A stretch of DNA of 64,000 bases from an uncultured Candidatus Micrarchaeota archaeon (lineage in GTDB: Archaea > Micrarchaeota > Micrarchaeia > Micrarchaeales > CABMGC01): positions 347,545 through 411,544 of the forward strand of contig CAWHXT010000005.1 in the NCBI GenBank assembly GCA_963833485.1, written 5' to 3'. The number at the start of each line of letters is the position of its first letter. Positions within the stretch are counted from its first letter, which is position 1. The notes below the pieces were generated by a model. The model had not been told where the DNA came from. It ran no database searches and saw nothing but the letters and a program-made list of their open reading frames with translations. Shown one piece after another: positions 1 through 55,549 of this stretch. Made by a program: the position numbers and the translations under genes.

Positions 1-1724
1 ACGTCCAGCATCTGCTGAATTAGTTCTGTCAGTCTGTCCGACTCGTCCAGTATCGTCTTCATGTATCCCCTCTGATCCTCATTCAGAGATCCAAAGTTCT
101 CATTGTAAATCAACTTCGAGAATCCCTTTATGTTTGTTATCGGCGTCTTGAGATCATGAGATATGTTGTAGATGAACTGCGTCTTCAGGTCGCTCTCTCT
201 CTTCACAGTCTCTATGTCACGCTGATACGCTTCTATGTCTCTATGCAGCTGCTCCATCGTTCTCTTAGTGGCAAGCTCCCTGCTTACTATTATGTACCCA
301 GATAGCTCCCCATTCTCGTCGAAAATACTCCTTATGCTCTGATCGCAAGGAACGGTTTCGTCCTCTTTCTTTTTCTTCACTACTGCATATATGTTGTTTA
401 TTATCCCTTCGTTCTTTGCTACTGTCAAAGCCTTTATGAACCTCTCTCCAGCGTCCTTTTCACTATACATAAGAGAAGCAGGAGTTCCTACAAGCTCCGC
501 TTCTTTATACCCAAATATCTCCTCAGCGCTCCTGTTCATGCGCTTTATGTAGCCAAGCTGATCAATGAATATTATCGCATCGCCAGACATCTTCACAAGC
601 TCCTCAAAATTACTCTCTATGCTCTTGAAGTACCTCTCAAGTACGTTGTTCAAGAGTATGCACGACATTCCGTAGAGGTCGTTTTTGAACAGGGATGCCT
701 TCACGTTGACGAACATCCCGTTTCCAACGTTTACTTCGATCGAATCCGTGTAAACGTCGTTTCCCAAGTTTTCTACTGCTTTCTTAAGCTTCTCCTTCTC
801 GGCTACTATGTCTAGAAGTTTTCTGTCAAGCAGCGCCTCCTTTTGACATCTCAGAATTTTTTCTATGTTGTCACTGGCCCATATTATCTTGCTCTCCCTA
901 TCCATCATGATGAATCCTTCTGAGTTGCTGTACTTGAGCAGTTTCGCCCTCTCCTCTAAATGCTTGAGATCTGAGGTCTCGTAAAAAGAGGCGTGGAGTA
1001 TATTTTCATTAACCTTGTTAGAGGTGACTCTGAACCTTCTGTCTTCCACTCCGACAATCTTTGCCTCCGCAGCAAGGCCTTTACTTAAGCTAAGCAGCAT
1101 GTTCATGTCGATATTGAAAAGTTCATTCACATTTCTTCCCGCAAGCTCCTTTGTGCTTGAGCTGAATAGGTTGAGCATGCTCTTGTTCGCCTTTATCACC
1201 GTCCCTTTGCCATCTATGAGGATCTGTGGAATGAGGTTGTTGAATGCCGCATCGAAATATTTAGCAAGGCTCAAGCTTTTCTCATACTCCATCCTGCTTA
1301 GGAGCTGGTAGCCGAGTATCACGGTGCTTATTGATATGGCATTCGTTACGTTGCTGTCAAACCTGTCCTCATTTTTCGAAAGGAGGGTTATTGTTGCAAA
1401 CTTCTTCCCTTCGATAGAGATTGGCAGAATCGCGCAGCTCTTGTATCCGACATTGTGGTAGTTAACAAGCTCGTCAAAATCTGAATATTCACTGAGTCTG
1501 TTGTCTATGTAAGGCTTCGCGGTGCTCATGGCAAACTCTTCCGCAGACTTCAGGGTCGCGCCCTTATCTACCAGTTTGGTCACCACCTCATCAAGACCGA
1601 AGATCAGCTTCAGCTCCTCTCCAAATTTTGTTACAAAATCTTCTGTGCTTATCTTTTTCTTCTCTAGATCGAAGATGTCAAATATCAACTTCGTTACAGC
1701 AACGTTCTCTACCATTGCACCCAT
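1..1724 (-). CDS. Sensor histidine kinase (GAF/PAS-like sensory region + HisKA phosphoacceptor domain); partial, catalytic C-terminus lies beyond the window edge
   Basis: My translation of the reverse strand from ATG 1724-1722 (MGAMVENVAV...) stays open to position 1. It ends in the H-box FIYNISHDLKTPITNIKGF...DESDRLTELIQQMLD. It is absent from the ORF track because it is open-ended. Confidence 0.85.
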   Translation of the reverse strand, partial: MGAMVENVAVTKLIFDIFDLEKKKISTEDFVTKFGEELKLIFGLDEVVTKLVDKGATLKSAEEFAMSTAKPYIDNRLSEYSDFDELVNYHNVGYKSCAILPISIEGKKFATITLLSKNEDRFDSNVTNAISISTVILGYQLLSRMEYEKSLSLAKYFDAAFNNLIPQILIDGKGTVIKANKSMLNLFSSSTKELAGRNVNELFNIDMNMLLSLSKGLAAEAKIVGVEDRRFRVTSNKVNENILHASFYETSDLKHLEERAKLLKYSNSEGFIMMDRESKIIWASDNIEKILRCQKEALLDRKLLDIVAEKEKLKKAVENLGNDVYTDSIEVNVGNGMFVNVKASLFKNDLYGMSCILLNNVLERYFKSIESNFEELVKMSGDAIIFIDQLGYIKRMNRSAEEIFGYKEAELVGTPASLMYSEKDAGERFIKALTVAKNEGIINNIYAVVKKKKEDETVPCDQSIRSIFDENGELSGYIIVSRELATKRTMEQLHRDIEAYQRDIETVKRESDLKTQFIYNISHDLKTPITNIKGFSKLIYNENFGSLNEDQRGYMKTILDESDRLTELIQQMLD

Positions 1725-1821
1725 CGCCTAATACTATTCGAAAGGCAAAAACTAAAAGTATTTTATGTGATACTTATTAATTTACTCTACTAACTTCTAC
1801 TGCTGATTGTGGTCATTTCTT

Positions 1822-2481
1822 ATGGAATTCAAGGAAATATTCGCGAACGTAATCAAGATAGACAGCAAGCTTGCTACCAAGAATCTCGTTCCGGGGACGA
1901 GGGTATATGATGAAGATTTGATAAACGTAGATGGAGTGGAATACAGATCGTGGAACCCGTATAGGAGCAAGCTTTCCGCAGCCATAATGAAAGGGCTCAA
2001 AAACCTAGAGATAATTCCAAAATCCAAAGTGCTCTACCTGGGTGCCGCGACAGGCACTACGTCCAGCCACGTGAGCGATATAGTCGAAGAGAGTGGAGTG
2101 GTTTATGCTATAGAACTCTCTGAGCGCAACCTTCGCGAGCTGATAAAGGTTTGTGAAAAAAGGTCAAACATGATACCTTTCCTTAATGACGCCAGAGAAG
2201 TTGAGAAGTACAAAGACGACATAGGAGAAGTGGACGTGATATATCAAGACGTATCTTCTCCAGATCAGGCAGAGATACTATTGAGAAACGCTGCTTTGTT
2301 GAAGACTGGAGGATTTGCGTACGTTGCGATAAAGTCCCAAAGCATAAGCAGTATAAGGAGGCCGAGCGAAGTTTTCAACGAGTTCCTAAAGCAAGTTTCA
2401 AGCGAGTTCAAGGTGCTTGAGAAGGTAGATATCAGCTCGTACGACAAGATGCACCTTTTCGTAGCGCTTAGTAAACGTTAA
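1822..2481 (+). CDS. flpA: Fibrillarin-like rRNA/tRNA 2'-O-methyltransferase
   Basis: YRSWNPYRSKLSAAI and the SAM-binding VLYLGAATGTTSSHVSDIV are fibrillarin signatures. The ORF track starts at TTG 1807; I prefer ATG 1822 (MEFKEIF). Confidence 0.93.
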   Translation: MEFKEIFANVIKIDSKLATKNLVPGTRVYDEDLINVDGVEYRSWNPYRSKLSAAIMKGLKNLEIIPKSKVLYLGAATGTTSSHVSDIVEESGVVYAIELSERNLRELIKVCEKRSNMIPFLNDAREVEKYKDDIGEVDVIYQDVSSPDQAEILLRNAALLKTGGFAYVAIKSQSISSIRRPSEVFNEFLKQVSSEFKVLEKVDISSYDKMHLFVALSKR

Positions 2482-2503
2482 TAAGATTTTTTACTGAATA
2501 ATA

Positions 2504-3328
2504 TTGTTTTACGTGGATAAGCTAAACCAGGAAATATTAAAAAATGGCCCGCAGCAGATGTTTATGTGCGAGTTCTGCGGGAGTAAAGTACCATCCTACA
2601 ACCAAGAGTTTGGCTTTTGCTATTTCTGCGAACTCGGAATCAGCAGCCTTGAAGAAGTGCTCCAACGCTACCCTGATTTTTACAGTGCTCTTAGCGTATT
2701 GGGCAAAGGCATCGGCGAGGGGAAATGGGGAAATGCAGAGAAGGGATTGCAGAAGCTCTTAACAATCAGAGAATCTCCAGAGATGGATTATGTTGCTGGT
2801 ATCTTCTACAACAACTATTCCGATTACATGTATACTAACAGAGACTACCAGTACCTTGCCGGTTTCAGGGAACCGAATGCAGAGAACATCAGCGCCGGAA
2901 TACAGTTCTTCTACAAATCAAAGGAGATGCTCTATAAGGCAATCGATAGCGCAAACAAGTTGCTGCAGACTAACGAGCACGATGAGCAAAGGCTCTTCGT
3001 TAAGTTCCTATCAGAGTTCAGACTGAAGAGGATGGCTGATGCGCGACAAACGCTTAAGGTGCTCAACGAGACATCGAACGGGGCGATGAGCGTCTATGCA
3101 AGCATGCTTTATTCCTCTACGATGCACAGCAAGGGGAGCTTCACATTTATGAAGCAGCTTACAGATATGGGCATAGTCAACTCTTTCTACTACTATGCAA
3201 GGTTCATTACCTCTGACGGCAACCTAAATGAAGCGAAGAACCTCCTGATCAAGCTTCTTTCAAGGGTAAGCATGCCAAAAGCAAAGAGCCTGCTTGAAGG
3301 AATACAGGGAGTGCAGGAAGTCCTTTAA
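2504..3328 (+). CDS. Hypothetical protein, N-terminal zinc ribbon (CEFCG...CYFC) followed by a helical, TPR-like region
   Basis: 274-aa ORF with two CxxC pairs near the N-terminus. I recognise no family. Confidence 0.55.
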   Translation: MFYVDKLNQEILKNGPQQMFMCEFCGSKVPSYNQEFGFCYFCELGISSLEEVLQRYPDFYSALSVLGKGIGEGKWGNAEKGLQKLLTIRESPEMDYVAGIFYNNYSDYMYTNRDYQYLAGFREPNAENISAGIQFFYKSKEMLYKAIDSANKLLQTNEHDEQRLFVKFLSEFRLKRMADARQTLKVLNETSNGAMSVYASMLYSSTMHSKGSFTFMKQLTDMGIVNSFYYYARFITSDGNLNEAKNLLIKLLSRVSMPKAKSLLEGIQGVQEVL

Positions 3329-3330
3329 TC

Positions 3331-3370
3331 AGTCTTTCGCAACACCCATCGGCACGTTCCTTGAGAGTAT
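3331..3370 (-). repeat. Displaced copy of the rtcB 3' end (reverse strand reads ...SRNVPMGVAKD-stop); direct repeat partner of 4291..4330
   Basis: 34 of 40 nt are identical to 4291..4330, including the exact 20-mer cccatcggcacgttccttga at 3345..3364 and 4305..4324 (960 bp apart). The differences are mostly synonymous third positions. Confidence 0.8.
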
Positions 3371-3518
3371 AATTTTGGTAAACCAAACATCTAGCACACA
3401 TTTTTAGTCCCCAAATTCCAGTAATTTTTAGATGATAAAATGGATGATGACCAAGAAAAAAGAAGCAGAGGAAGAGTGACGGTTAAAGAGATTGCTGCAA
3501 AACTAGAGAGTTTCACAA

Positions 3519-4292
3519 TTGAATCAAGAGTACGCAACAAAGATTTTAATTTTACAAGTTAAGAAAGAAGACGAGAGCACAAGGTTATTTGCTATCGGAC
3601 AGGGAGCTTTCTCCCTCAGGTATATTATATCAGCTAAATTTGATCCTTTTGATAAAACTTACAGCTTAAAAATCGGTAGATGCAAAAAAGAAGGAATGGA
3701 ATTCGTATGGAATTTTGACGCAGAATCTAACCCAGATACTGTATCTATCGGCTATTCCGAAGCGAAGGGAATTGTTGAAAATCCAGATGCTATGGAAGCA
3801 ACACAGGAAGCAATAAGATTAATGAGAGAAGGACTAACAACCAGCATCTTAGAAGTGAATCCAGTAGCTTTATCTGAGAGAATTAACAGGCTATCAGTTC
3901 TTCAGGCTGCAGAAGTTGCAATAAGAACTGAACGAAAAGAGAGTAAAAAGTGGTCTAGAAACAGCGAGTGGTACATGAGACTTGGAAGAGAGATACATGA
4001 GCGCGGTTTGGAGTTTGACCTCCATCCCAATGTCATCGATCCCATAATCGAATGGTATATTACTGGTGACAGCAGTCATCTTCGTGCCATGTTAAACAGC
4101 CCGGTTGAAAGGGAAGTAGAAGACACTAAGAAAGCTTTGAAGAACCTCGAGGAAGCAGGAAGAAGCAATGTAAAGGGAGAACTAGAGCATAAAACGAACT
4201 TCTGGGAGATTGTGGCAATATTACAAACAGCTTCCGGGAAATCGCTTCCCCAAATATTAAGAGACAAAAGCACCGATGGAGCAGGCCCTTAG
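3519..4292 (+). CDS. Hypothetical protein (257 aa), the only long ORF inside the 960-bp segment bounded by the rtcB 3'-end repeats
   Basis: Long ORF with a TTG start and no recognisable motifs. Its stop overlaps the rtcB stop convergently. A 40-aa ORF (3440..3562, MDDDQEKRSRGRVTVKEIAAKL...) sits one base out of frame upstream. Confidence 0.5.
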   Translation: MNQEYATKILILQVKKEDESTRLFAIGQGAFSLRYIISAKFDPFDKTYSLKIGRCKKEGMEFVWNFDAESNPDTVSIGYSEAKGIVENPDAMEATQEAIRLMREGLTTSILEVNPVALSERINRLSVLQAAEVAIRTERKESKKWSRNSEWYMRLGREIHERGLEFDLHPNVIDPIIEWYITGDSSHLRAMLNSPVEREVEDTKKALKNLEEAGRSNVKGELEHKTNFWEIVAILQTASGKSLPQILRDKSTDGAGP

Positions 4293-7240
4293 CCTTTTGC
4301 TACGCCCATCGGCACGTTCCTTGAAACTATGTTAGATAAGCCAGCTTTTTCTACCACGCCAACCACATCGTCAACACTCTTGTAAGCCCACTCCGCCTCC
4401 TCACTTATCAGCTTCCTTGTCCTTATCCTTACGATGACCTTCTTCTTGTCAAGCTCTTCAAAGGTCCTTGAAGCGGGTATGTCGCGTAGCGCCTGGTGCC
4501 TCGACATCAACCTCCCAGATCCATGGCACGTAGAGCCGAAAGTCTCTCTCATCGCTCCCTCTTTCCCTGCAAGCACGTAGCTTGCTGTGCCCATGCTTCC
4601 TGGTATTATCACAGGTTGTCCCACGTTCCTGTAAATCTTCGGCACGCCGTCGCTTCCCTTCGCGAAGGCTCTTGTGGCTCCTTTCCTATGTACGTAGACC
4701 TTGACCTTCTTTCCCTCGAAAATATGTTCCTCGTGCTTTGCGATGTTGTGCGCAACGTCGTACAGGAGTTCCATTCCCAAAGCGTCTGCGCTCTTCGAGA
4801 AAACCTCCTCGAAACTCTTCCTTATCGAGTTGGTTATTATCTGTCTGTTGGTGAACGCATAGTTTACCGCACAGTTCATCGCACCAAGGTAATCATCAGC
4901 CTCCTTGCTTCCTATCTTAGCATAGCTGAGTTCCTGGTCTATAAGGTTGATGTTGTTTTCATGCTGATAAGTAAGGAGGGAGCGAAGGTAATCGCTGCAG
5001 ATCTGGTGGCCGAAACCCCTAGATCCTGTATGCACCATTATCACAGCCTGCCCCTCAAAAAGCCCGAAATCTTTAGCTATCTTTTCGTCAAATATCTTCT
5101 CGATCTTCTGGACCTCAAGGAAATGGTTCCCCGCGCCCAGGGTGCCGAGCTCGTGCAAGCCTCTAGATTTCACCATTTGGCTTATCTTGCTGAAGTCAGC
5201 GCCCCGAACAGCGCCGTTCTCTTCTATTCTGTCAACGTCGTCAGCGAAACCGTAGCCCTTCTTCACCATGTACGCAACCCCATCCTCCGCCACCTTTTCG
5301 ATGTCGGCTGGCGTGAGACCTATCCTCAGCCTGCTGCCGACGCCGCTCGGCACGTTCTTAAATAAGCTGTCCATCAGCTGCTCAATTTTCGGCCTTACCT
5401 CCTTCTCTGTGAGGTTAGTTTTTATCAGCCTGACGCCGCAGTTTGACACAACAATACCATTCGCGATAAAATTATGGTTTTTGTTATCTACTGTTATATC
5501 AAATACACTTCCATTGTAAACAACGCTCTCTATTTTACTGATCACGTCATAAGTAAGACCACTTTTTCCTATTTCCAACTTCCTTGAGAAATCCTCAAAT
5601 TTGACGTCTCCCCATATCCTTGCAGTCCCACTTCTTCCCCATAAAGTGTGTTCCAAGAAGCTTTTGCTGATATTGTCGCTGCCAAGCTGTTTTAATATCA
5701 AAACAGTAGTCTCACCAGATCTTAACATTGCGAGCGCCTTACTTCTTGCTTCGTTTCGCTCAGCTCTTATCTTCTTCAGATGAGTTAGATATAGGCACGC
5801 AAGACTTGCTAATCTTTCTTTTTCAATATTGTATGCATAACCAACAGAGCCAAAAAATCTTATCAGGTTATCTGTGTTTGAGAGAATGCCAAGCCTGAAT
5901 CCTACAGATATGCCCTTCTTACCATTGTACCTATATCCTTTGACGATGGTAGGTTGTATGGTCCCTATGCCAAAAGAATCTAACATGCTTTTTATATCCC
6001 CCAGAAAAGCCACAGCGTTATCTCCAAGTTCTTCAAGCTTGTTGACACTAAATGCAGGGGCAGAGAAATTATATCCATTGTTTGCCATAGGTTTCGAAAG
6101 CTCCGCACCAAAATATGCTGCAAGAAAAAGTCTTTTCTGCCAATTTTCAGAATTAATTATCCATTCCGGTACTCTATAACGCTGGGTCGCTTTGTTACCC
6201 AACGGAGCTCCTAGACACACCAGAAGTGCTCCAAAGGCTGCAGCACCTACATTCAGAGAATATTCCTCATAATCAAATTCGGTGGTCCCGTACACAGTGG
6301 TTATCTTATTATGTCGTTTCCTGTAGTTTATGTGCGATTTGAACCCAAGTGCAAATATGTCTTCCTGAACCTTCATCAAGTTCTCACGTCCTCCATAAAA
6401 CGTGGTGTATGTAATCTCACCTTTGGTATCTGGTATAGTTCCATCCCCAAATACAAAACCGAGCAGCTTTAGCAGAATCGGCAGTTTAGGATGTCGTGTG
6501 CTTATATTGGTAAGTCCAAGTTGTCTTAGAAAGTTTAATACTTGTTTCAAAGCATTTCCTTTCTTCCCGATTCCTAAAGCCCCTAATACTGTAATAAGCC
6601 TTTCCTCCGAGAGAATTACCTTATCTATTGGCTTTACAAATTCGATGCCTTCAAAACCTGTTGTAATAATCTTGTCCCCCACTTTCAACTTACCAGCCAA
6701 TATCATCCCCTTATCTGTAAGTATGGGATGATCTGGCGTGGCAAGTATCCCCCTACCAAGGCCAGTACTTACCTTAAGAATTTCTCCAGTGTATTGTCTT
6801 TTCATGAAAAAAGTAAGCTTAGTATCGATGATTTGTAACTTTTGCATATCAAAGGTTTGTATACAAGGATTTTCATCCAAAAGATCTGCTATCTTATGCC
6901 AAGCGCCGTTCGAGTCATATACACATGAATCTGGATGAAGGCAGTTTATGTCGAATCCAACTGCACCTGGTGAAATTATCCCATCATTCGCATCGAATGC
7001 GACAACTCCGCCGACAGGGAACCCGTACCCCTGGTGCCCGTCAGGCATCACCATGACGTTTCCGACGATACCAGGGAGCGTTGCGGCATTTGAGGCCTGC
7101 TGAAGCGTGCTGTCTCCCTGCATCTTTTCAAGCATCTGCTTTGTTGCGTAGATCATCACGTCAGTCTTCATCTGCGTTCCGCTAACCTTCTCTATCTTGA
7201 ATCTGACGTCGTCAACTTGCTTTATTTCCATGCGAACCAT
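4289..7240 (-). CDS. rtcB: RNA-splicing ligase RtcB, interrupted by an in-frame intein (extein about 482 aa)
   Basis: The extein carries MPDGHQGYGFPVGGV, GFDIN|C...CGVRL, GNHFLE, HTGSRGFGHQ and HGSGR, all RtcB motifs. I start at M27 of the ORF (MVRMEIKQV, 7240), because the upstream 26 codons look like non-coding AT-rich sequence. Confidence 0.93.
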   Translation of the reverse strand: MVRMEIKQVDDVRFKIEKVSGTQMKTDVMIYATKQMLEKMQGDSTLQQASNAATLPGIVGNVMVMPDGHQGYGFPVGGVVAFDANDGIISPGAVGFDINCLHPDSCVYDSNGAWHKIADLLDENPCIQTFDMQKLQIIDTKLTFFMKRQYTGEILKVSTGLGRGILATPDHPILTDKGMILAGKLKVGDKIITTGFEGIEFVKPIDKVILSEERLITVLGALGIGKKGNALKQVLNFLRQLGLTNISTRHPKLPILLKLLGFVFGDGTIPDTKGEITYTTFYGGRENLMKVQEDIFALGFKSHINYRKRHNKITTVYGTTEFDYEEYSLNVGAAAFGALLVCLGAPLGNKATQRYRVPEWIINSENWQKRLFLAAYFGAELSKPMANNGYNFSAPAFSVNKLEELGDNAVAFLGDIKSMLDSFGIGTIQPTIVKGYRYNGKKGISVGFRLGILSNTDNLIRFFGSVGYAYNIEKERLASLACLYLTHLKKIRAERNEARSKALAMLRSGETTVLILKQLGSDNISKSFLEHTLWGRSGTARIWGDVKFEDFSRKLEIGKSGLTYDVISKIESVVYNGSVFDITVDNKNHNFIANGIVVSNCGVRLIKTNLTEKEVRPKIEQLMDSLFKNVPSGVGSRLRIGLTPADIEKVAEDGVAYMVKKGYGFADDVDRIEENGAVRGADFSKISQMVKSRGLHELGTLGAGNHFLEVQKIEKIFDEKIAKDFGLFEGQAVIMVHTGSRGFGHQICSDYLRSLLTYQHENNINLIDQELSYAKIGSKEADDYLGAMNCAVNYAFTNRQIITNSIRKSFEEVFSKSADALGMELLYDVAHNIAKHEEHIFEGKKVKVYVHRKGATRAFAKGSDGVPKIYRNVGQPVIIPGSMGTASYVLAGKEGAMRETFGSTCHGSGRLMSRHQALRDIPASRTFEELDKKKVIVRIRTRKLISEEAEWAYKSVDDVVGVVEKAGLSNIVSRNVPMGVAKG
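4291..4330 (-). repeat. Functional rtcB 3' end (…SRNVPMGVAKG-stop); direct repeat partner of 3331..3370
   Basis: See the 3331..3370 entry. Confidence 0.8.
5441..6943 (-). mobile_element. Full-size intein (501 aa) with a LAGLIDADG homing-endonuclease domain, inserted in the RtcB GFDIN/CGVRL active-site loop
   Basis: Starts CLHPDSCVYD (block A). Block B is ATPDHPILT. The LAGLIDADG motifs are LLGFVFGDGTI and LFLAAYFGAELS. It ends VFDITVDNKNHNFIANGIVVSN followed by the +1 Cys (CGVRLIK). Coordinates were counted from codons: C126 = 6943-6941, terminal Asn = 5443-5441. Confidence 0.88.
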
Positions 7241-7376
7241 ATAGACAAAAATATACTCAACACTTATAAATAGTGAAAATAGATATGTTTTTGAGAGATA
7301 AACACTTTTCGAGTACAATCAATTAGATAAGTATAAATATAAGAAAATGAATGTATTACCGCGAAAACTGAAAGTG

Positions 7377-26337: not shown

Positions 26338-27676
26338 TTGCATTACATGCAACTACTATCTGATTCTGTGGACTCAGATAATACGATGTTAAACGATCAA
26401 CAAGCAGCTTCCCAGTCTGCTACTCCTCCCACACCACCATCTATGACTCCAATGCGGTCAAAAGCACCATCTTCTTCTAATCACACTTTACTATATGCTG
26501 TAGTTGGCATAATTATAATCGTTGTCATCGCAGCCGTTTTTCTTACAATAGGACATGGCAACCAAAAAGGTAGCAACTCATCAAACTCAAGCTCAGTTAA
26601 TAACTCTACTGCTTCAAATTCTTCCAATTCGAATAGGTCGTCAAGTAATTCGTCAACAAAGCCTAGCTCAGGTACCACTTCTAAAAATTCTACAATACTT
26701 GCAAATGCGAACTCAGCTTACTGTGTGGGTGGCATTCAAATTTTAAATTATCCACCAGGTCCAACTTCCTTATCATACTACACTAATATATCAAAGAATT
26801 CCATAAGCTCCTGGAGTCAAACCACTTCTTATCCAACGATCGTAGGAAATTTTTCTAAAAATGACTCATATCAGTCTTGCACTCCTTACAATGGATACGT
26901 ATACTGTATTGGAGGTACAGCCCCTGAAATCGTAAATAATTCATACTTTGCACAACTTTCATCTCAAGGAATAGGTAAATGGAATGCAACAACTTCATAT
27001 CCATATACAATTGATCAAGAATATTGTGGAGCTTACTCTGGTTACATATACTGCGTTGGTGGCAATAACAGAACAACCGTCAGATCCAACGTTACTAATT
27101 ATGCCTCCATATCAAAGAGCGGCATCGGCACGTGGCATCAGTCCTCAATCTATCCTGCGGATTCAATTCCTTGGGTCTGTGTATTTGAAGGCAGCTATGT
27201 ATACTGCACTACTGGAGAAAATTACTATGGCTCTGAGTCCAAATCTTACTATGCAAATCTCACAGCAAATGGTGTTGGTACCTGGATTCAAACAACAAGT
27301 TTCCCAGATAGTTTTGTGCCTGGATCTTGCGCAGCATACAACGGTTACATATACCTGTGTTGGAGGAACGTACCCTAGCAATGGAGCACTTACCAATTCT
27401 ACATATTATGCAAAATTATCAAGTTCTGGGATAGGCAACTGGACAAAAACCACTCCATACCCGTTGCAAATATACTCTCAATCATGTTTTGCAAATAATG
27501 CAAACCTTTATTGTGTAGGTGGCGCAGTCCCCTGGAAAAACGCAGGATCTTATGTGTTACCTAACAATACAAAGTCCACATACATAGCCCCAATATCAAG
27601 TTCAGGAATAGGTTCTTGGACAAAACAGGCAGATTATCCAGTAGCACTTGCAGCATCTTCCCAATGCTTTGTATGA
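26338..27676 (+). CDS. Membrane-anchored extracellular Kelch-like beta-propeller protein with a Ser/Asn-rich stalk, split by a frameshift
   Basis: A TM helix is followed by SNSSNSSSVNNSTASNSSNS... and then a repeated blade motif: Y(N/S)GY(I/V)YC(I/V)GG plus S(S/K)(S/G)GIG(N/T/S)W. The pieces 26338..27378 and 26984..27676 join as AAYNGYIY-CVGGTYPSNG if one C at 27354..27355 is skipped. Confidence 0.65.
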
Positions 27677-32331: not shown

Positions 32332-32447
32332 ATTTGCCCTCAGTCGAAATGATCAACATCATACGTTCACATCAGCAGTTACTCTCATCTTCATAGGACG
32401 GATAACTAAAGAAGTTGATATATATAAATTTACCTTCTTATCGAATC

Positions 32448-32888
32448 ATGAAAGCACCGAATTTTAGATATATTCCAGACGTTGCCGATGTCTCTTTTGT
32501 AGCTTATGGGACCAACCTGAAAGAAACGGTAGAGAGTTCGGCTCTTGCGATGCTTAACGTGATGTTTGACATAAAAAGAATCAAAAAAGAGAAAGGCAAA
32601 GTGAGAAGCTTAAGGATAGTAGAAAAAGCATCAACAAATGAGGAGCTAATCTGGTTTACCCTCCAAAAGATCGTATCGAAGGTAGACGAAAAGGGGATCA
32701 ACGCGTTCAAGTTCAAGGTGAACCACCTCTCTGAAAGAGGCGGAAAGAAGGTACTGCACGGATGCATCTTCTATAAGGACACCAAGAAATACCTTGCGCT
32801 TTTGGACGTCAAGGCAGTAACCCCTCATGGATTAGAAGTTAACCAAACCTCCAAAAAATGGAGCGCAAAGGTGATTGTGGATGTATAA
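32448..32888 (+). CDS. Archease (RtcB activator/chaperone)
   Basis: FRYIPDVADVSFVAYGTNLKETVESSALAMLNVM... and the C-terminal VKAVTPHGLEV fit the archease pattern. The start is set at MKAPNF. Confidence 0.8.
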   Translation: MKAPNFRYIPDVADVSFVAYGTNLKETVESSALAMLNVMFDIKRIKKEKGKVRSLRIVEKASTNEELIWFTLQKIVSKVDEKGINAFKFKVNHLSERGGKKVLHGCIFYKDTKKYLALLDVKAVTPHGLEVNQTSKKWSAKVIVDV

Positions 32889-35771: not shown

Positions 35772-36237
35772 ATCTAAAAAAACAAGGCTGCAGTCGAGCT
35801 TCGAGCTTCTGGTAACGCTCTCCTTCGGCCTCGCCATACTACTGCCAGTGGTGGCTTTCGCTTTCCTCCAAATCGCAAACGCTAATTCCTCCTTATCGGC
35901 AATCGCCGCACAGCAAGCAGCTTCGAAGATAGCAAGCACCGCCACGATAGTTGGCAGTGAAGGATCTCCTGCAAAGCAGATCATACAAGTGGCCATGCCT
36001 CCAGGGGTGCAATACATATATATCGGCACGCTCAACAACGGAATCGGACACGAGATTATATTTGTGGTGAGATCTTCTACAGGTTATAGCTATGTGACCG
36101 CATACACTCCGCAGAACGTAACAGGCAGCTTAGGGAGTATAACTTCTTCAGGCACTTACCTTGTAAACGTGTCCGCGCAGTCTCAATGCCCACTCTTGCA
36201 GCCAGTGCCATGCGTGTACGTCTCCCCAATAGTGTGA
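35761..36237 (+). CDS. Small type IV pilin-like protein with a class-III signal peptide (DUF361-like QxSxE motif)
   Basis: MNNESKKTRLQSSFELLVTLSFGLAILLPVVAFAFL has a basic N-terminus, Q-S-S-F-E (Glu at +5) and a hydrophobic helix. It overlaps the CBS gene end by 11 nt. Confidence 0.65.
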   Translation: MNNESKKTRLQSSFELLVTLSFGLAILLPVVAFAFLQIANANSSLSAIAAQQAASKIASTATIVGSEGSPAKQIIQVAMPPGVQYIYIGTLNNGIGHEIIFVVRSSTGYSYVTAYTPQNVTGSLGSITSSGTYLVNVSAQSQCPLLQPVPCVYVSPIV

Positions 36238-36245
36238 TTCATATC

Positions 36246-47162: not shown

Positions 47163-47780
47163 TTATGTATTCACGCTTAAAAACTTATTCCCTAATTCTG
47201 TAAGAAGCTTGTTTCTCAGTTCTATCAGCGACCTCTGGAACTGATCTTTCGACTTTATCTTCTCATAGCGGACCTGCTCGCTCAATCCTATCACCTCGCT
47301 CCTCACTATTGAAAGTTGATACTGGGTGAACGCCTTGTTATCCAGACCCTCCTTTATCCCTTCAAGCTCGTGGATTTGGTCCTGCAAAGATAGGGTTGGC
47401 AGCACGAGCTTCTCCTTGTTTATCTTCTTCGCCTCCTCCTCTACGACCTGGTCAAACTCCTTCCCAGCGCCACCTATAAGCTGCTTTATCTCCTTTGCCG
47501 CATCGAAGCTCTCCTTGGTAACGCTCTTCACCGGCACCTGCTTCGCCTTTGCCTCCTGAATCTGCTTCGCTGTCGGCTCCTCTATTGCCGGAATCTTCCC
47601 TCCTTCAGTGATCTCTATCTCTTTGCACGCTTTATTGTAATCATAAGTCCCAACATCGATCTGATATGAGAGTGCTTCTTTGGTGTTTATCATGACGCTC
47701 TTTGTTTCTTCGTTCTCCCCTTCCATCTCGTCAATGGTCTTAACCGCCTGGTTGTAATCAACATTTTCCTCGTTAGCCAC
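47163..47780 (-). CDS. Acidic hypothetical protein in the pilus machinery operon
   Basis: 205 aa and E/K-rich. Its start abuts the ATPase stop (shared coordinate 47780). I recognise no family. Confidence 0.55.
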   Translation of the reverse strand: MANEENVDYNQAVKTIDEMEGENEETKSVMINTKEALSYQIDVGTYDYNKACKEIEITEGGKIPAIEEPTAKQIQEAKAKQVPVKSVTKESFDAAKEIKQLIGGAGKEFDQVVEEEAKKINKEKLVLPTLSLQDQIHELEGIKEGLDNKAFTQYQLSIVRSEVIGLSEQVRYEKIKSKDQFQRSLIELRNKLLTELGNKFLSVNT

Positions 47781-49198
47781 TATATTCCCTCCTTAAACAT
47801 TCCCGGCGTGTAACTCACTTTCTTCTTCACCAGATCGAGCACGTTGTCCTTTTGCTTGTAGTAGTTTGCGATTGCGTAACCCACTTCGTCTACATCAATG
47901 ACCTTGTTGCCAACAAGCCAGTCAAGCATCTCCTTTCTGTCCTTCAAATCTTGACTGACCTCACTCTTGGTGTAACCACCATAGAGCATGAGCAGCTCTC
48001 CGAGCCTTCCAAACTCTGCTATCTGAAGGAAAGTGTCATTCTTCAGGTTCCACCTGTAGATGACGTTCGCGTCTCCCGTCTTCACTATCTCTCCAAATTC
48101 CAGCACCCTTCTTATCCCAAGTCTCCTATGCCTGAAGAGGCTCACTATACCTCCAATCGCGTTTATGAGTATTTTCGGTATGCCTATTGGTGGGTTTGTT
48201 ATTCTCACTATAGTATCATTCGCGTTGTCTGCGTGGACTGTGCCGTACACCGCGTGACCTGTGTGTATTGCCTCGAAAAGCGTCTCTGCGTCCTTCTGGG
48301 TTCTGATTTCTCCGATAAGCATGATGTCAGGACGCTGTCTAAGTGCGTTTATCATAAGGTCGTATAAAGTAATTTCTCCCTTTCCTTCTGGGTTCGGCTG
48401 CCTTGTAACCATTGGCACCCAATGAAGGAATGCAGGAAGTGTGAGCTCCCTAGTTTCCTCTACAGATATTATCCTGTGGTTTCCTGGCATGAAGACGCTC
48501 ATGGCGTTTAGGAAGCTTGTCTTCCCGCTTGCCGTTCCACCAGAGATCAGCATGCTAAGCTCGTTCTGGACGCACATCCATATTATTGCGGCGACTTCCG
48601 AGGAAATCGTATGGTTTGCTATCAGCGCGGGCATGGTCCACGGATTCTTCGCGAACTTTCTTATTGTTATTGTGTTTCCTCTTTGTGATATTGGGTAGAG
48701 AGTCGCATTGACTCTTGAGCCATCAGGAAGCTCCGCGTCCATCAGCGGAGAAAGGTTGGTTATCTGCCTCCCCACTCTTCTTCCTATCTGCTCCGAGTCG
48801 TCGTATATCGCTGCCTCACTGTCCAACTTTATCGTTGACTTGCACCACCCGTACTTTTTATGGAACACCCAAACAGGTTCCTTAGCGTTGTTAACTACCA
48901 CTTCCTCAAGGTTATCATCAGCAAGTGGTATCTCCAGGTCCCCAAGACCGAGCATAATGTTGATTATGTAAGCAATCAGCGCCCTCTTCGCATCTGGTTT
49001 CGTGCCAGGAAGGTACTTCTCCACTACAAGGCTAGAAGCCTCTACGTACTTTGCGCTCAGTTCCTCCACATACTCTTTATCTTCTATCCTTGTCGGATCT
49101 ATCGGCACTATCGCAAGCAGCTCCGGTCTAAGCGAAGAAAGGAGGATCTTAGTCGCGTCACCTAGCCCTGGGGAAGATAACCTGATATATTGGTACAA
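47780..49198 (-). CDS. Type IV pilus/archaellum-type secretion ATPase (FlaI/VirB11/TadA family); true start may be ATG 49295 with a frameshift near 49181..49184
   Basis: Walker A SGGTASGKTS, ISVEETRELT, and RQRPDIMLIGEIR...HTGHAVYGTVHA. An upstream 36-codon ORF (MSDVIIYKQYDNYNLDAHGLKVNIKITDVPGEFVPIYQ) starts 4 nt after the preceding gene and is +1 out of frame. Confidence 0.88.
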   Translation of the reverse strand: MYQYIRLSSPGLGDATKILLSSLRPELLAIVPIDPTRIEDKEYVEELSAKYVEASSLVVEKYLPGTKPDAKRALIAYIINIMLGLGDLEIPLADDNLEEVVVNNAKEPVWVFHKKYGWCKSTIKLDSEAAIYDDSEQIGRRVGRQITNLSPLMDAELPDGSRVNATLYPISQRGNTITIRKFAKNPWTMPALIANHTISSEVAAIIWMCVQNELSMLISGGTASGKTSFLNAMSVFMPGNHRIISVEETRELTLPAFLHWVPMVTRQPNPEGKGEITLYDLMINALRQRPDIMLIGEIRTQKDAETLFEAIHTGHAVYGTVHADNANDTIVRITNPPIGIPKILINAIGGIVSLFRHRRLGIRRVLEFGEIVKTGDANVIYRWNLKNDTFLQIAEFGRLGELLMLYGGYTKSEVSQDLKDRKEMLDWLVGNKVIDVDEVGYAIANYYKQKDNVLDLVKKKVSYTPGMFKEGI

Positions 49199-54513: not shown

Positions 54514-55533
54514 TTAGAGTTTCGTCTTTCCAGTGTTTACTATCAGCATTTTCTTATTTCTAGGTAGAGAATTCTTCATCTGCAACATCAGCGCAAGACC
54601 AGCTACTCCAGAAGGCTCGCAGTTGATCCCCTGAGATTTTGCAATCCTCATCGCTTCGTCTAGATACTTCTCTTTTAGGAAGTAAACGTCTGTTCTTGGG
54701 CCGCAGAATCCTGACCTCTTATAAAATCTTAGCCAGTCCTCTTCTATCATAGGTGCAGCCAAGAAATGAGCATAAAGTTTGTCTGCCTTCGTTTTTGGAT
54801 TATTTGAAGTCGCTCCCATAAAATTGCAGTTCCTTAGCGCGTTTACGTTGCCATGAAATCTTGGATCATACCTTTGGTACCCTACTTCGAGCTTATTTAA
54901 TTCCAAGACCTTTGAAAATAGAATCCCAGTTCCAACTGGAATAAAGCAGTAATCTGGAGAGTTATTTAGTATCTCATAGCCCATCCAGTCGTAGTTGCCT
55001 ATCTCTGAGATAGCTCCACGATTTGAAGTCAGGTCAAATCCGTTCTTGTTCTTTGTAAGCGAAAGGATATCTTCCGCTAATAGAAGTCTTTTGCTTAAAT
55101 CTGTAACAAATATCTCACAATGGGATTTTTTGATAGCACCATAAATCTTAGGATCTAAATTTTTATCTACCAAAACTTTGAGTTTCGGTAACCTATAGTG
55201 TTCTAACATGCGGCCTATAGCAATTGCTGCAGAACCAGAGGAGATTATAGAAAATCTTGGTAGAGCACCATAATGAGGATCGGATTTTTTCGCTAGCAAA
55301 AAGTTTCTGTATAAGATGATTACCTCCCATGCAATTCGATCTTTGTGAGTTCCAGTTGGGTTTACACTGTCATCCTTTAACCAAACATTTGAGAAACCAG
55401 GTACCTTTATTTTATAAGTAGGCGTTGCAGGGAATTTTGGATTATATGGTGGGAACTCTGGTTTATGTGGGTCGTCCGTTGATGGAACGACAATTGAGTT
55501 CAATACCTTCTCTTCATTTTTGGATAAGCTCAT
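54514..55533 (-). CDS. PLP-dependent enzyme, fold type II (threonine synthase/cysteine synthase superfamily)
   Basis: NPTGTHKDR (PLP lysine motif), IISSGSAAIAIG and IPVGTGILF. Confidence 0.65.
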   Translation of the reverse strand: MSLSKNEEKVLNSIVVPSTDDPHKPEFPPYNPKFPATPTYKIKVPGFSNVWLKDDSVNPTGTHKDRIAWEVIILYRNFLLAKKSDPHYGALPRFSIISSGSAAIAIGRMLEHYRLPKLKVLVDKNLDPKIYGAIKKSHCEIFVTDLSKRLLLAEDILSLTKNKNGFDLTSNRGAISEIGNYDWMGYEILNNSPDYCFIPVGTGILFSKVLELNKLEVGYQRYDPRFHGNVNALRNCNFMGATSNNPKTKADKLYAHFLAAPMIEEDWLRFYKRSGFCGPRTDVYFLKEKYLDEAMRIAKSQGINCEPSGVAGLALMLQMKNSLPRNKKMLIVNTGKTKL

Positions 55534-55549
55534 CTAATCGGTCTCTATA

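Follow-up and report, generated by a model that had tools for sequence, protein, structure and literature searches.

A small insert flanked by a duplicated rtcB 3' end in a Micrarchaeota genome

How does a gene without any detectable relative come to lie between two copies of the end of a conserved gene? This question is raised by a 64,000-nucleotide stretch of DNA from an uncultured Candidatus Micrarchaeota archaeon (GenBank assembly GCA_963833485.1, contig CAWHXT010000005.1, positions 347,545 to 411,544; the whole stretch is hereafter called the window), in which a short insert with one orphan open reading frame (ORF), orf257, separates the tRNA-splicing ligase gene rtcB from its convergent neighbor orf274 (Table 1). 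A first-pass annotation, made from the sequence alone, had taken this segment for the remnant of an element integrated into a protein-coding gene. Our analysis supports an insertion accompanied by a duplication resembling attachment (att) sites, whereas a site-specific integrative origin stands as the best inference only. The reading that we favor, with moderate confidence, is a Campbell-type insertion of a small circular DNA by way of a look-alike of the rtcB end, the element now being non-autonomous or decayed.

The repeat and the insert

The 3' end of rtcB occurs twice in direct orientation, at 3329-3370, which reads tcagtctttcgcaacaCCCATCGGCACGTTCCTTGAgagtat, and at 4289-4330, which reads ttagccttttgctacgCCCATCGGCACGTTCCTTGAaactat, with a spacing of 960 bp as annotated at first pass, and each copy spans the last 12 to 13 rtcB codons plus the stop. 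The identity between the copies is 35 of 42 positions by direct count (34 of 40 according to the repeat finder), including an exact 20-mer core, CCCATCGGCACGTTCCTTGA, at 3345-3364 and 4305-4324. Since this core, even with up to three mismatches allowed, matches the window at these two places alone and was never matched in 100 shuffles, the repeat is real and represents neither a chance resemblance nor a dispersed motif, the latter being one way in which the original interpretation could have failed. Translated on the minus strand, the displaced copy gives ILSRNVPMGVAKD and the real rtcB end gives IVSRNVPMGVAKG, each followed by a stop, and rtcB is intact and in frame despite the insert.

The seven differences within the 42 nt are distributed unevenly, with none in the core, five in the 16 nt distal to it and two in the proximal 6 nt. 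The five core-distal differences comprise three synonymous third positions, in line with the earlier remark that several differences are silent, one stop swap (TGA versus TAA) and one change from Gly to Asp in the displaced copy. All five coding-end differences would fall by chance into the 16 core-distal nt out of 36 with a probability of 0.012, and 7 differences in 42 nt would leave an unbroken identical stretch of 20 nt or more with a probability of 0.05. Moreover, only one of the five distal differences alters an amino acid, the other four being silent (P of ∼0.018 under random change), which suggests that both arms evolved as working rtcB ends and recombined in the core; one sequence duplicated in place fits the pattern less well.

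Table 1. Coordinates of the features of the rtcB locus, numbered from the first nucleotide of the window
Feature	Coordinates	Strand	Remarks
orf274, conserved Micrarchaeota-specific gene, 274 aa as listed (∼271 aa)	2504..3328	+	Host-side marker of the insertion
Displaced rtcB 3' end (…ILSRNVPMGVAKD-TGA)	3329..3370	-	rtcB-distal att copy; adjoins the stop of the convergent neighbor
Core copy 1 (CCCATCGGCACGTTCCTTGA)	3345..3364	.	Putative crossover segment; two matches in window, 0 expected
Unique insert, 918 bp	3371..4288	+	Lacking in all relatives; single copy in window
40-aa ORF, ATG start	3440..3562	+	No family match
orf257, orphan, 257 aa, TTG start as listed	3519..4292	+	TAG stop; convergent with rtcB
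Functional rtcB 3' end (…IVSRNVPMGVAKG-TAA)	4289..4330	-	Gene-proximal att copy
Core copy 2	4305..4324	.	Exact match to copy 1
rtcB (tRNA-splicing ligase), 1009 aa from first start codon as listed	4289..7318	-	Pfam RtcB
rtcB intein, 501 aa (aa 126-626)	5441-6943	-	Pfam Intein_splicing; weak LAGLIDADG_3

Given that the source is a contig from an uncultured organism, the long-read metagenome-assembled genome (MAG) might have been misassembled here, whether through a chimeric join or because a repeat was collapsed or duplicated. An independent assembly of the same strain, a contig from Logan accession ERR11594402 (L083), matches window positions 1328-3740 with two 1-nt gaps only, and it reproduces orf274, the displaced copy and the first 370 bp of the insert; thus, the left junction is not an assembly artefact. 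The two indels indicate that base-level errors do exist. Both are deletions in L083, at window positions 2685 and 3556, directly after TTTTACA in each case, and the one at 2685 breaks the conserved orf274; they may reflect a systematic base-calling error, or the window may be frameshifted at 3556. The two copies of the rtcB end are not identical, which argues against a collapsed repeat, and an intact, in-frame rtcB likewise speaks against misassembly. Taken with the match to L083, these observations make an artefact extremely unlikely.

Both ORFs that had been noted between the repeats are present, and the TAG stop of orf257 overlaps the rtcB stop by 2 nt (4290-4291). In L083, which has one base fewer at 3556, the 40-aa ORF is fused in frame to orf257 to give a 283-aa, ATG-initiated ORF, so that the two may be a single gene. 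The stretch resembling a helix-turn-helix motif that had been pointed out in the short ORF was not borne out by any Pfam, NCBIfam or PHROG match. Neither orf257 nor the 40-aa ORF nor the fused ORF matched a Pfam, PHROG, NCBIfam or PADLOC entry, and orf257 had no match among PDB sequences or to LAGLIDADG, HNH or GIY-YIG families. In a word-indexed search of 5.8 billion proteins, and again in a full HMMER pass over 1.84 billion representative proteins, orf257 retrieved itself only; a conserved chromosomal gene that always adjoins rtcB, as which it might have turned out, it is not. AlphaFold (AF2) models were unusable, with predicted local distance difference test (pLDDT) scores of 42 for the full ORF and 45 when started from the ATG at 3696. 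The GC content at third codon positions (GC3) of orf257 is 0.37 versus ∼0.5 in the window, among the four lowest of 50 ORFs, and its frame is the best of the six for host-like codon usage, yet scores 0.14 versus a typical 0.3. The cargo is therefore an orphan and compositionally atypical.

Further scans of the region yielded little. No Rfam match was found in 2400-4700, and a promoter and terminator scan returned nothing above chance. A terminator-like hairpin with a T-rich stretch lies at 4233-4254 on the minus strand, 35 nt downstream of the rtcB stop and inside both the insert and the coding region of orf257, this being one site versus 1.2 expected by chance.

Empty sites in related genomes

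To place the insert among relatives, a genome collection that lacks the window's own species was scanned with the RtcB C-extein, which returned 80 loci, nearly all from Micrarchaeota MAGs and at best 78% identical, and gene content was compared by tblastn. A homolog of orf274 together with the fibrillarin gene, after which orf274 sits, is convergent to rtcB in 39 of these loci, about half, and the distance from the rtcB stop to the end of the orf274 homolog ranges from -7 to +30 bp in most of the 39, including nearly all of the closest. No homolog of orf257 or of the 40-aa ORF was detected by tblastn in the 80 loci. A protein search with the RtcB C-terminus found nothing closer than 79%, while one with orf274 led to closer relatives on short contigs, including L083, L084 and L085. 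In L085, the nearest relative with a readable junction (61% aa identity in orf274 and 78% nt identity in rtcB), the two stop codons are directly adjacent (TAA/TCA), which represents an empty site. In L084 (orf274 86% identical in aa and 85% in nt), the junction reads TAA/TCAG and is followed by an intact …RNVPMGVAKG tail with its stop, the contig terminating inside the core. Thus, the concern that all relatives might carry the same segment was answered by the sequences themselves, since orf274 directly abuts rtcB in relatives.

The same comparison bears on which copy is the older. Like L084 and L085, the displaced copy has the TAA/TCAG junction and a TGA stop, the stop of the working end being TAA; hence the displaced copy, judged by its sequence, holds the ancestral position and the ancestral stop. 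If so, the 16 core-distal nt of the working copy, with the TAA stop and the synonymous changes, would have arrived with the insert. The final Asp of the displaced copy is a change that followed displacement, once this copy was no longer translated, because all 80 relatives terminate in KG before the stop. L084 can be compared over 33 nt, and there the two window copies show 5 mutual differences, and 4 and 3 differences relative to L084; they are no closer mutually than to the ortholog from a genome of ∼85% identity, which fits separately evolved arms. With the ancestral position and stop in the displaced copy and the synonymous replacements in the gene-proximal one, the geometry of an attL/attR pair fits.

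The contig of L084, the closest relative (ERZ27249792 k141_64034, last bases 1015-1049), stops 1 nt before the end of the core, exactly where an empty chromosomal site (attB) and an occupied att copy would diverge. This end could represent an assembly-graph branch caused by an insertion polymorphism in that sample, or a coincidence; it fits an insertion polymorphism in nature.

Unrelated extra DNA at the rtcB/orf274 junction, without repeats, was found in 13 of the ∼42 syntenic relatives, indicating that this tail-to-tail junction is a variable, permissive spot in Micrarchaeota. The gap is filled, with no duplicated tail, in L009, L012, L016, L019, L023, L024, L055, L061, L064, L065 and L088. 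Its content includes an IS200-type Y1 transposase in L024, a ∼200-aa ORF co-oriented with rtcB and without a Pfam match in L016, L019 and L023, a ∼600-aa ORF in L055 and L064, ORFs resembling ABC transporters (identified by eye from the sequence) in L061, and ∼670 bp with small ORFs in L088.

Because the junction is permissive, insertion routes that are not site-specific stay alive. One of them starts from a staggered break in the tail of rtcB that takes up foreign DNA through end joining or a transposition-like event; fill-in duplicates ∼40 bp, and the initially identical copies then diverge, the working copy silently and the displaced copy freely. Besides the unrelated DNA in the 13 relatives, this route draws support from the lack of a recombinase and of a second copy of the element in our searches, and from the fact that, compared with outgroups, each copy carries ∼3 private changes in a symmetric fashion, which simple drift could also give. 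However, a duplication of 36 to 42 bp far exceeds the known target duplications of transposases or casposases, terminal inverted repeats are lacking, and drift would need ∼15% divergence between the copies next to a perfect 20-nt core. Moreover, it implies an old event, yet the insert is in no sampled relative. We therefore consider a staggered break improbable, though still worth keeping in mind.

A second route dispenses with a mobile element altogether: in another micrarchaeon, orf257 would have been the normal convergent neighbor of rtcB, and a piece of that chromosome would have been transferred and fixed by one homologous crossover in the rtcB tail together with an unequal or illegitimate join at its opposite end. 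In favor of this route, the space between rtcB and orf274 is occupied by different genes in other lineages; the C-terminus of RtcB is encoded perfectly by the incoming arm, but in other codons, as expected of a foreign rtcB; and the unique sequence of the insert starts in a non-coding stretch and terminates exactly at the rtcB-like stop. Against this stand the absence of a donor-like orf257-rtcB locus from the 80 genome loci and the protein databases, and the complete host tail, which demands a second, precisely placed illegitimate join and is less parsimonious than a crossover with a circle. Such a fragment transfer seems rather unlikely to us.

Crossover model and candidate catalysts

The simplest event giving the observed order is one crossover with a circle. 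In this model, ∼0.92 kb of foreign DNA with one orphan gene would have entered the chromosome by a single reciprocal, Campbell-type crossover between the chromosomal rtcB 3' end (attB) and a 36- to 42-bp look-alike on a small circle (attP), within the 20-bp identical core. rtcB would then end with 16 insert-supplied nt that specify the same amino acids by other codons and a TAA stop, and the original end with its TGA would be shifted by 960 bp, still abutting the convergent neighbor, its decay begun with the change from Gly to Asp. The resulting order would be host gene body, core, foreign end, cargo, core, original end and neighbor. The empty site predicted by the model is …GTCCTTTAA/TCAGTCTTTCGCAACA-core-AAACTATGTTAG…, and the predicted circle junction is …GGCCCTTAGCCTTTTGCTACG-core-GAGAGTATAATTTTGG…. 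The circular intermediate, the position of the crossover and its catalyst are what we infer from these arrangements. As catalyst, a site-specific recombinase, either lost by internal deletion of a larger integrative element or provided in trans by an integrase acting from elsewhere, has in our judgment somewhat less than an even chance, both variants taken together; host homologous recombination on the short homeologous stretch has a smaller one.

Several observations weigh against a crossover with an integrative element. Neither the insert nor any of the 50 window ORFs of at least 150 aa yielded an integrase, transposase or resolvase domain, which also bears out the first-pass statement that an integrase is missing, and, compared with integrase-bearing integrated mobile genetic elements (iMGEs) of the tyrosine- or serine-recombinase type, the locus shows att repeats with a rebuilt gene end and an empty site in relatives, while a recombinase gene and evidence of mobility were not found. 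The first-pass suggestion that the 257-aa ORF or the repeat might be met beside integrases or on plasmids and viruses came to nothing in viral, plasmid and metagenome collections: neither the core 20-mer nor a degenerate pattern for the tail of rtcB occurs in viral contigs, the only two exact matches of the core in metagenome contigs lie in unrelated high-GC DNA, no attP-like copy was seen in viral or metagenome contigs, orf257 has no relatives in viral contigs, the fused 283-aa form had none in phage and plasmid records by tblastn, and no free or second copy of the insert was found. A duplicated rtcB tail was detected within 10 kb in none of the 80 genome loci, L085 or L088, by an ungapped scan at 66 to 70% identity or higher combined with local alignment and with the window as positive control. 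In non-syntenic relatives, no integrase is among the 25 commonest families listed for 98 ORFs downstream of rtcB, where V-ATPase subunits and similar genes are the commonest listed. In addition, the overall GC content of the insert is only mildly low (0.40 versus 0.43 for the window; 13th percentile), the statistics of the differences between the copies rest on 5 to 7 sites, and the core is also identical in L084 and conserved at 19 of 20 nt in some distant relatives, so that its perfection may reflect slow evolution rather than a crossover.

Since neither an integrase nor relatives were found, the insert is probably a stranded remnant, and most likely an immobile captured gene today. A living, minimal 0.96-kb non-autonomous element that targets the rtcB 3' end and is moved in trans, or a 257- or 283-aa protein that is itself a recombinase of an undescribed type, appears very unlikely.

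Specific recombination systems were also considered. A partitioned integrase of the SSV type was rejected, as orf257 reaches its own stop within the arm moving with the element, so that recombination would neither split nor join it. A 9-mer, TCCCCAAAT, that occurs 44 nt inside the left core and 50 nt before the right core was given no weight as a pair of arm-type sites, ∼1.6 such pairs being expected by chance in 920 bp (our own estimate). The core has no dyad symmetry, and a XerA/dif-type site was rejected. An insertion sequence, transposon or casposon was rejected owing to the lack of terminal inverted repeats at the insert ends, the 36- to 42-bp and imperfect duplication and the absence of a transposase domain, and invasion by a homing endonuclease or an intein was rejected for the insert, because orf257 matched no homing endonuclease family and the LAGLIDADG signal lies in the separate rtcB intein.

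Known systems, surroundings and significance

In Sulfolobales, 'gene capture' by decayed integrated elements has reportedly been described by She, Garrett and co-workers. The captured genes are said to be att-flanked foreign genes left behind after the ability to excise was lost, with repeats of similar length, as here; unlike here, they reportedly lie in tRNA genes with fragments of a partitioned SSV-type integrase at the borders, whereas orf257 stops inside its own arm and bears no integrase signature. In bacteria, cis-mobilizable elements (CIMEs) occupy the 3' end of fda in Streptococcus thermophilus, and pseudo-SCC elements that of rlmH in staphylococci. Like the insert, these are short att-flanked segments in the 3' end of a housekeeping gene that lack their own recombinase and leave the host gene intact, but they have a known cognate autonomous element and none was found for the insert. 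Thus, the locus resembles integrase-less att-flanked remnants in that the repeats are present and the recombination module is absent, while no cognate autonomous element was seen at the same att site in relatives.

Within archaea, the closest comparison is offered by the iMGEs of Thaumarchaeota (Krupovic et al. 2019, PMC6563490), of which 14 of 68 are inserted in the 3'-distal part of protein genes with an element-supplied stop codon. Similar to the insert, these elements lie in the last codons of a conserved gene between flanking direct repeats, supply the stop and gene end, and have borders set by empty sites in relatives (PMC6563490). They differ in that they encode an integrase, measure at least 2.6 kb, the size of the smallest cryptic integrated element, and mostly have att sites of <25 bp (PMC6563490), whereas the insert amounts to 0.96 kb with a 36- to 42-bp imperfect repeat, lacks a recombinase and resides in Micrarchaeota. 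The repeat length falls within the range of 29 to 69 bp quoted for crenarchaeal att sites (PMC6563490). Casposons of archaea likewise duplicate their target and lie at the 3' end of a conserved gene related to translation, that for aEF-2 (PMC6563490), but have terminal inverted repeats, a Cas1-like casposase and 14- to 15-bp duplications, none of which is present here. Therefore, the kind of insertion is already known in archaea, and the example described here is new, unusually small and integrase-less.

As for the host genes, the intein that had been reported in rtcB was recovered by the Pfam profiles RtcB and Intein_splicing together with a weak LAGLIDADG_3 match. A homologous intein occupies the same site in 7 of the 80 relatives (L001, L004, L017, L023, L032, L039 and L061) and is absent from at least 66, a sporadic distribution. 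An archease gene (RtcB cofactor family, PF01951) is located at 32415-32888 (+), ∼25 kb from rtcB. The likely start of orf274 is the GTG at 2513, and its product has a Cys-rich N-terminus (CEFCG…CYFCE) and weak TPR-like signals.

Elsewhere in the window, the lowest GC3 values (0.32 to 0.38) belong to ORFs at 26338-27378 (+), a Kelch-like ORF, and at 54514-56776 (-), which comprise a pyridoxal phosphate (PLP)-dependent enzyme, a NUDIX protein and a further ORF. Both may likewise have been acquired; a search with a 12-nt seed revealed no repeats at their flanks. Large proteins with repeated Laminin_G_3 (ConA-like) domains and a recurring ∼37-nt motif (FFNG…I.N.QIY-type) are encoded at 36186-45079 (+) and may be surface proteins. 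A gene set resembling type IV pilus or secretion systems (T2SSE and two T2SSF) adjoins this cluster at 45072-49198.

The host phylum makes the locus noteworthy, as Micrarchaeota have few known integrated elements; among 1356 genomes of this phylum, a survey of 2026 detected no provirus (PMC13573593). Beyond its bearing on this phylum and its genes, the locus is no more than one insertion of a familiar type, and probably a dead one. Nevertheless, the insertion gives a concrete origin for one lineage-specific orphan gene, and the attL/attR-type footprint together with the empty site indicates that the reduced genomes of DPANN archaea, too, capture genes by Campbell-type events where an essential gene ends; there, the rtcB tail offers a specific target sequence for finding plasmids or viruses.

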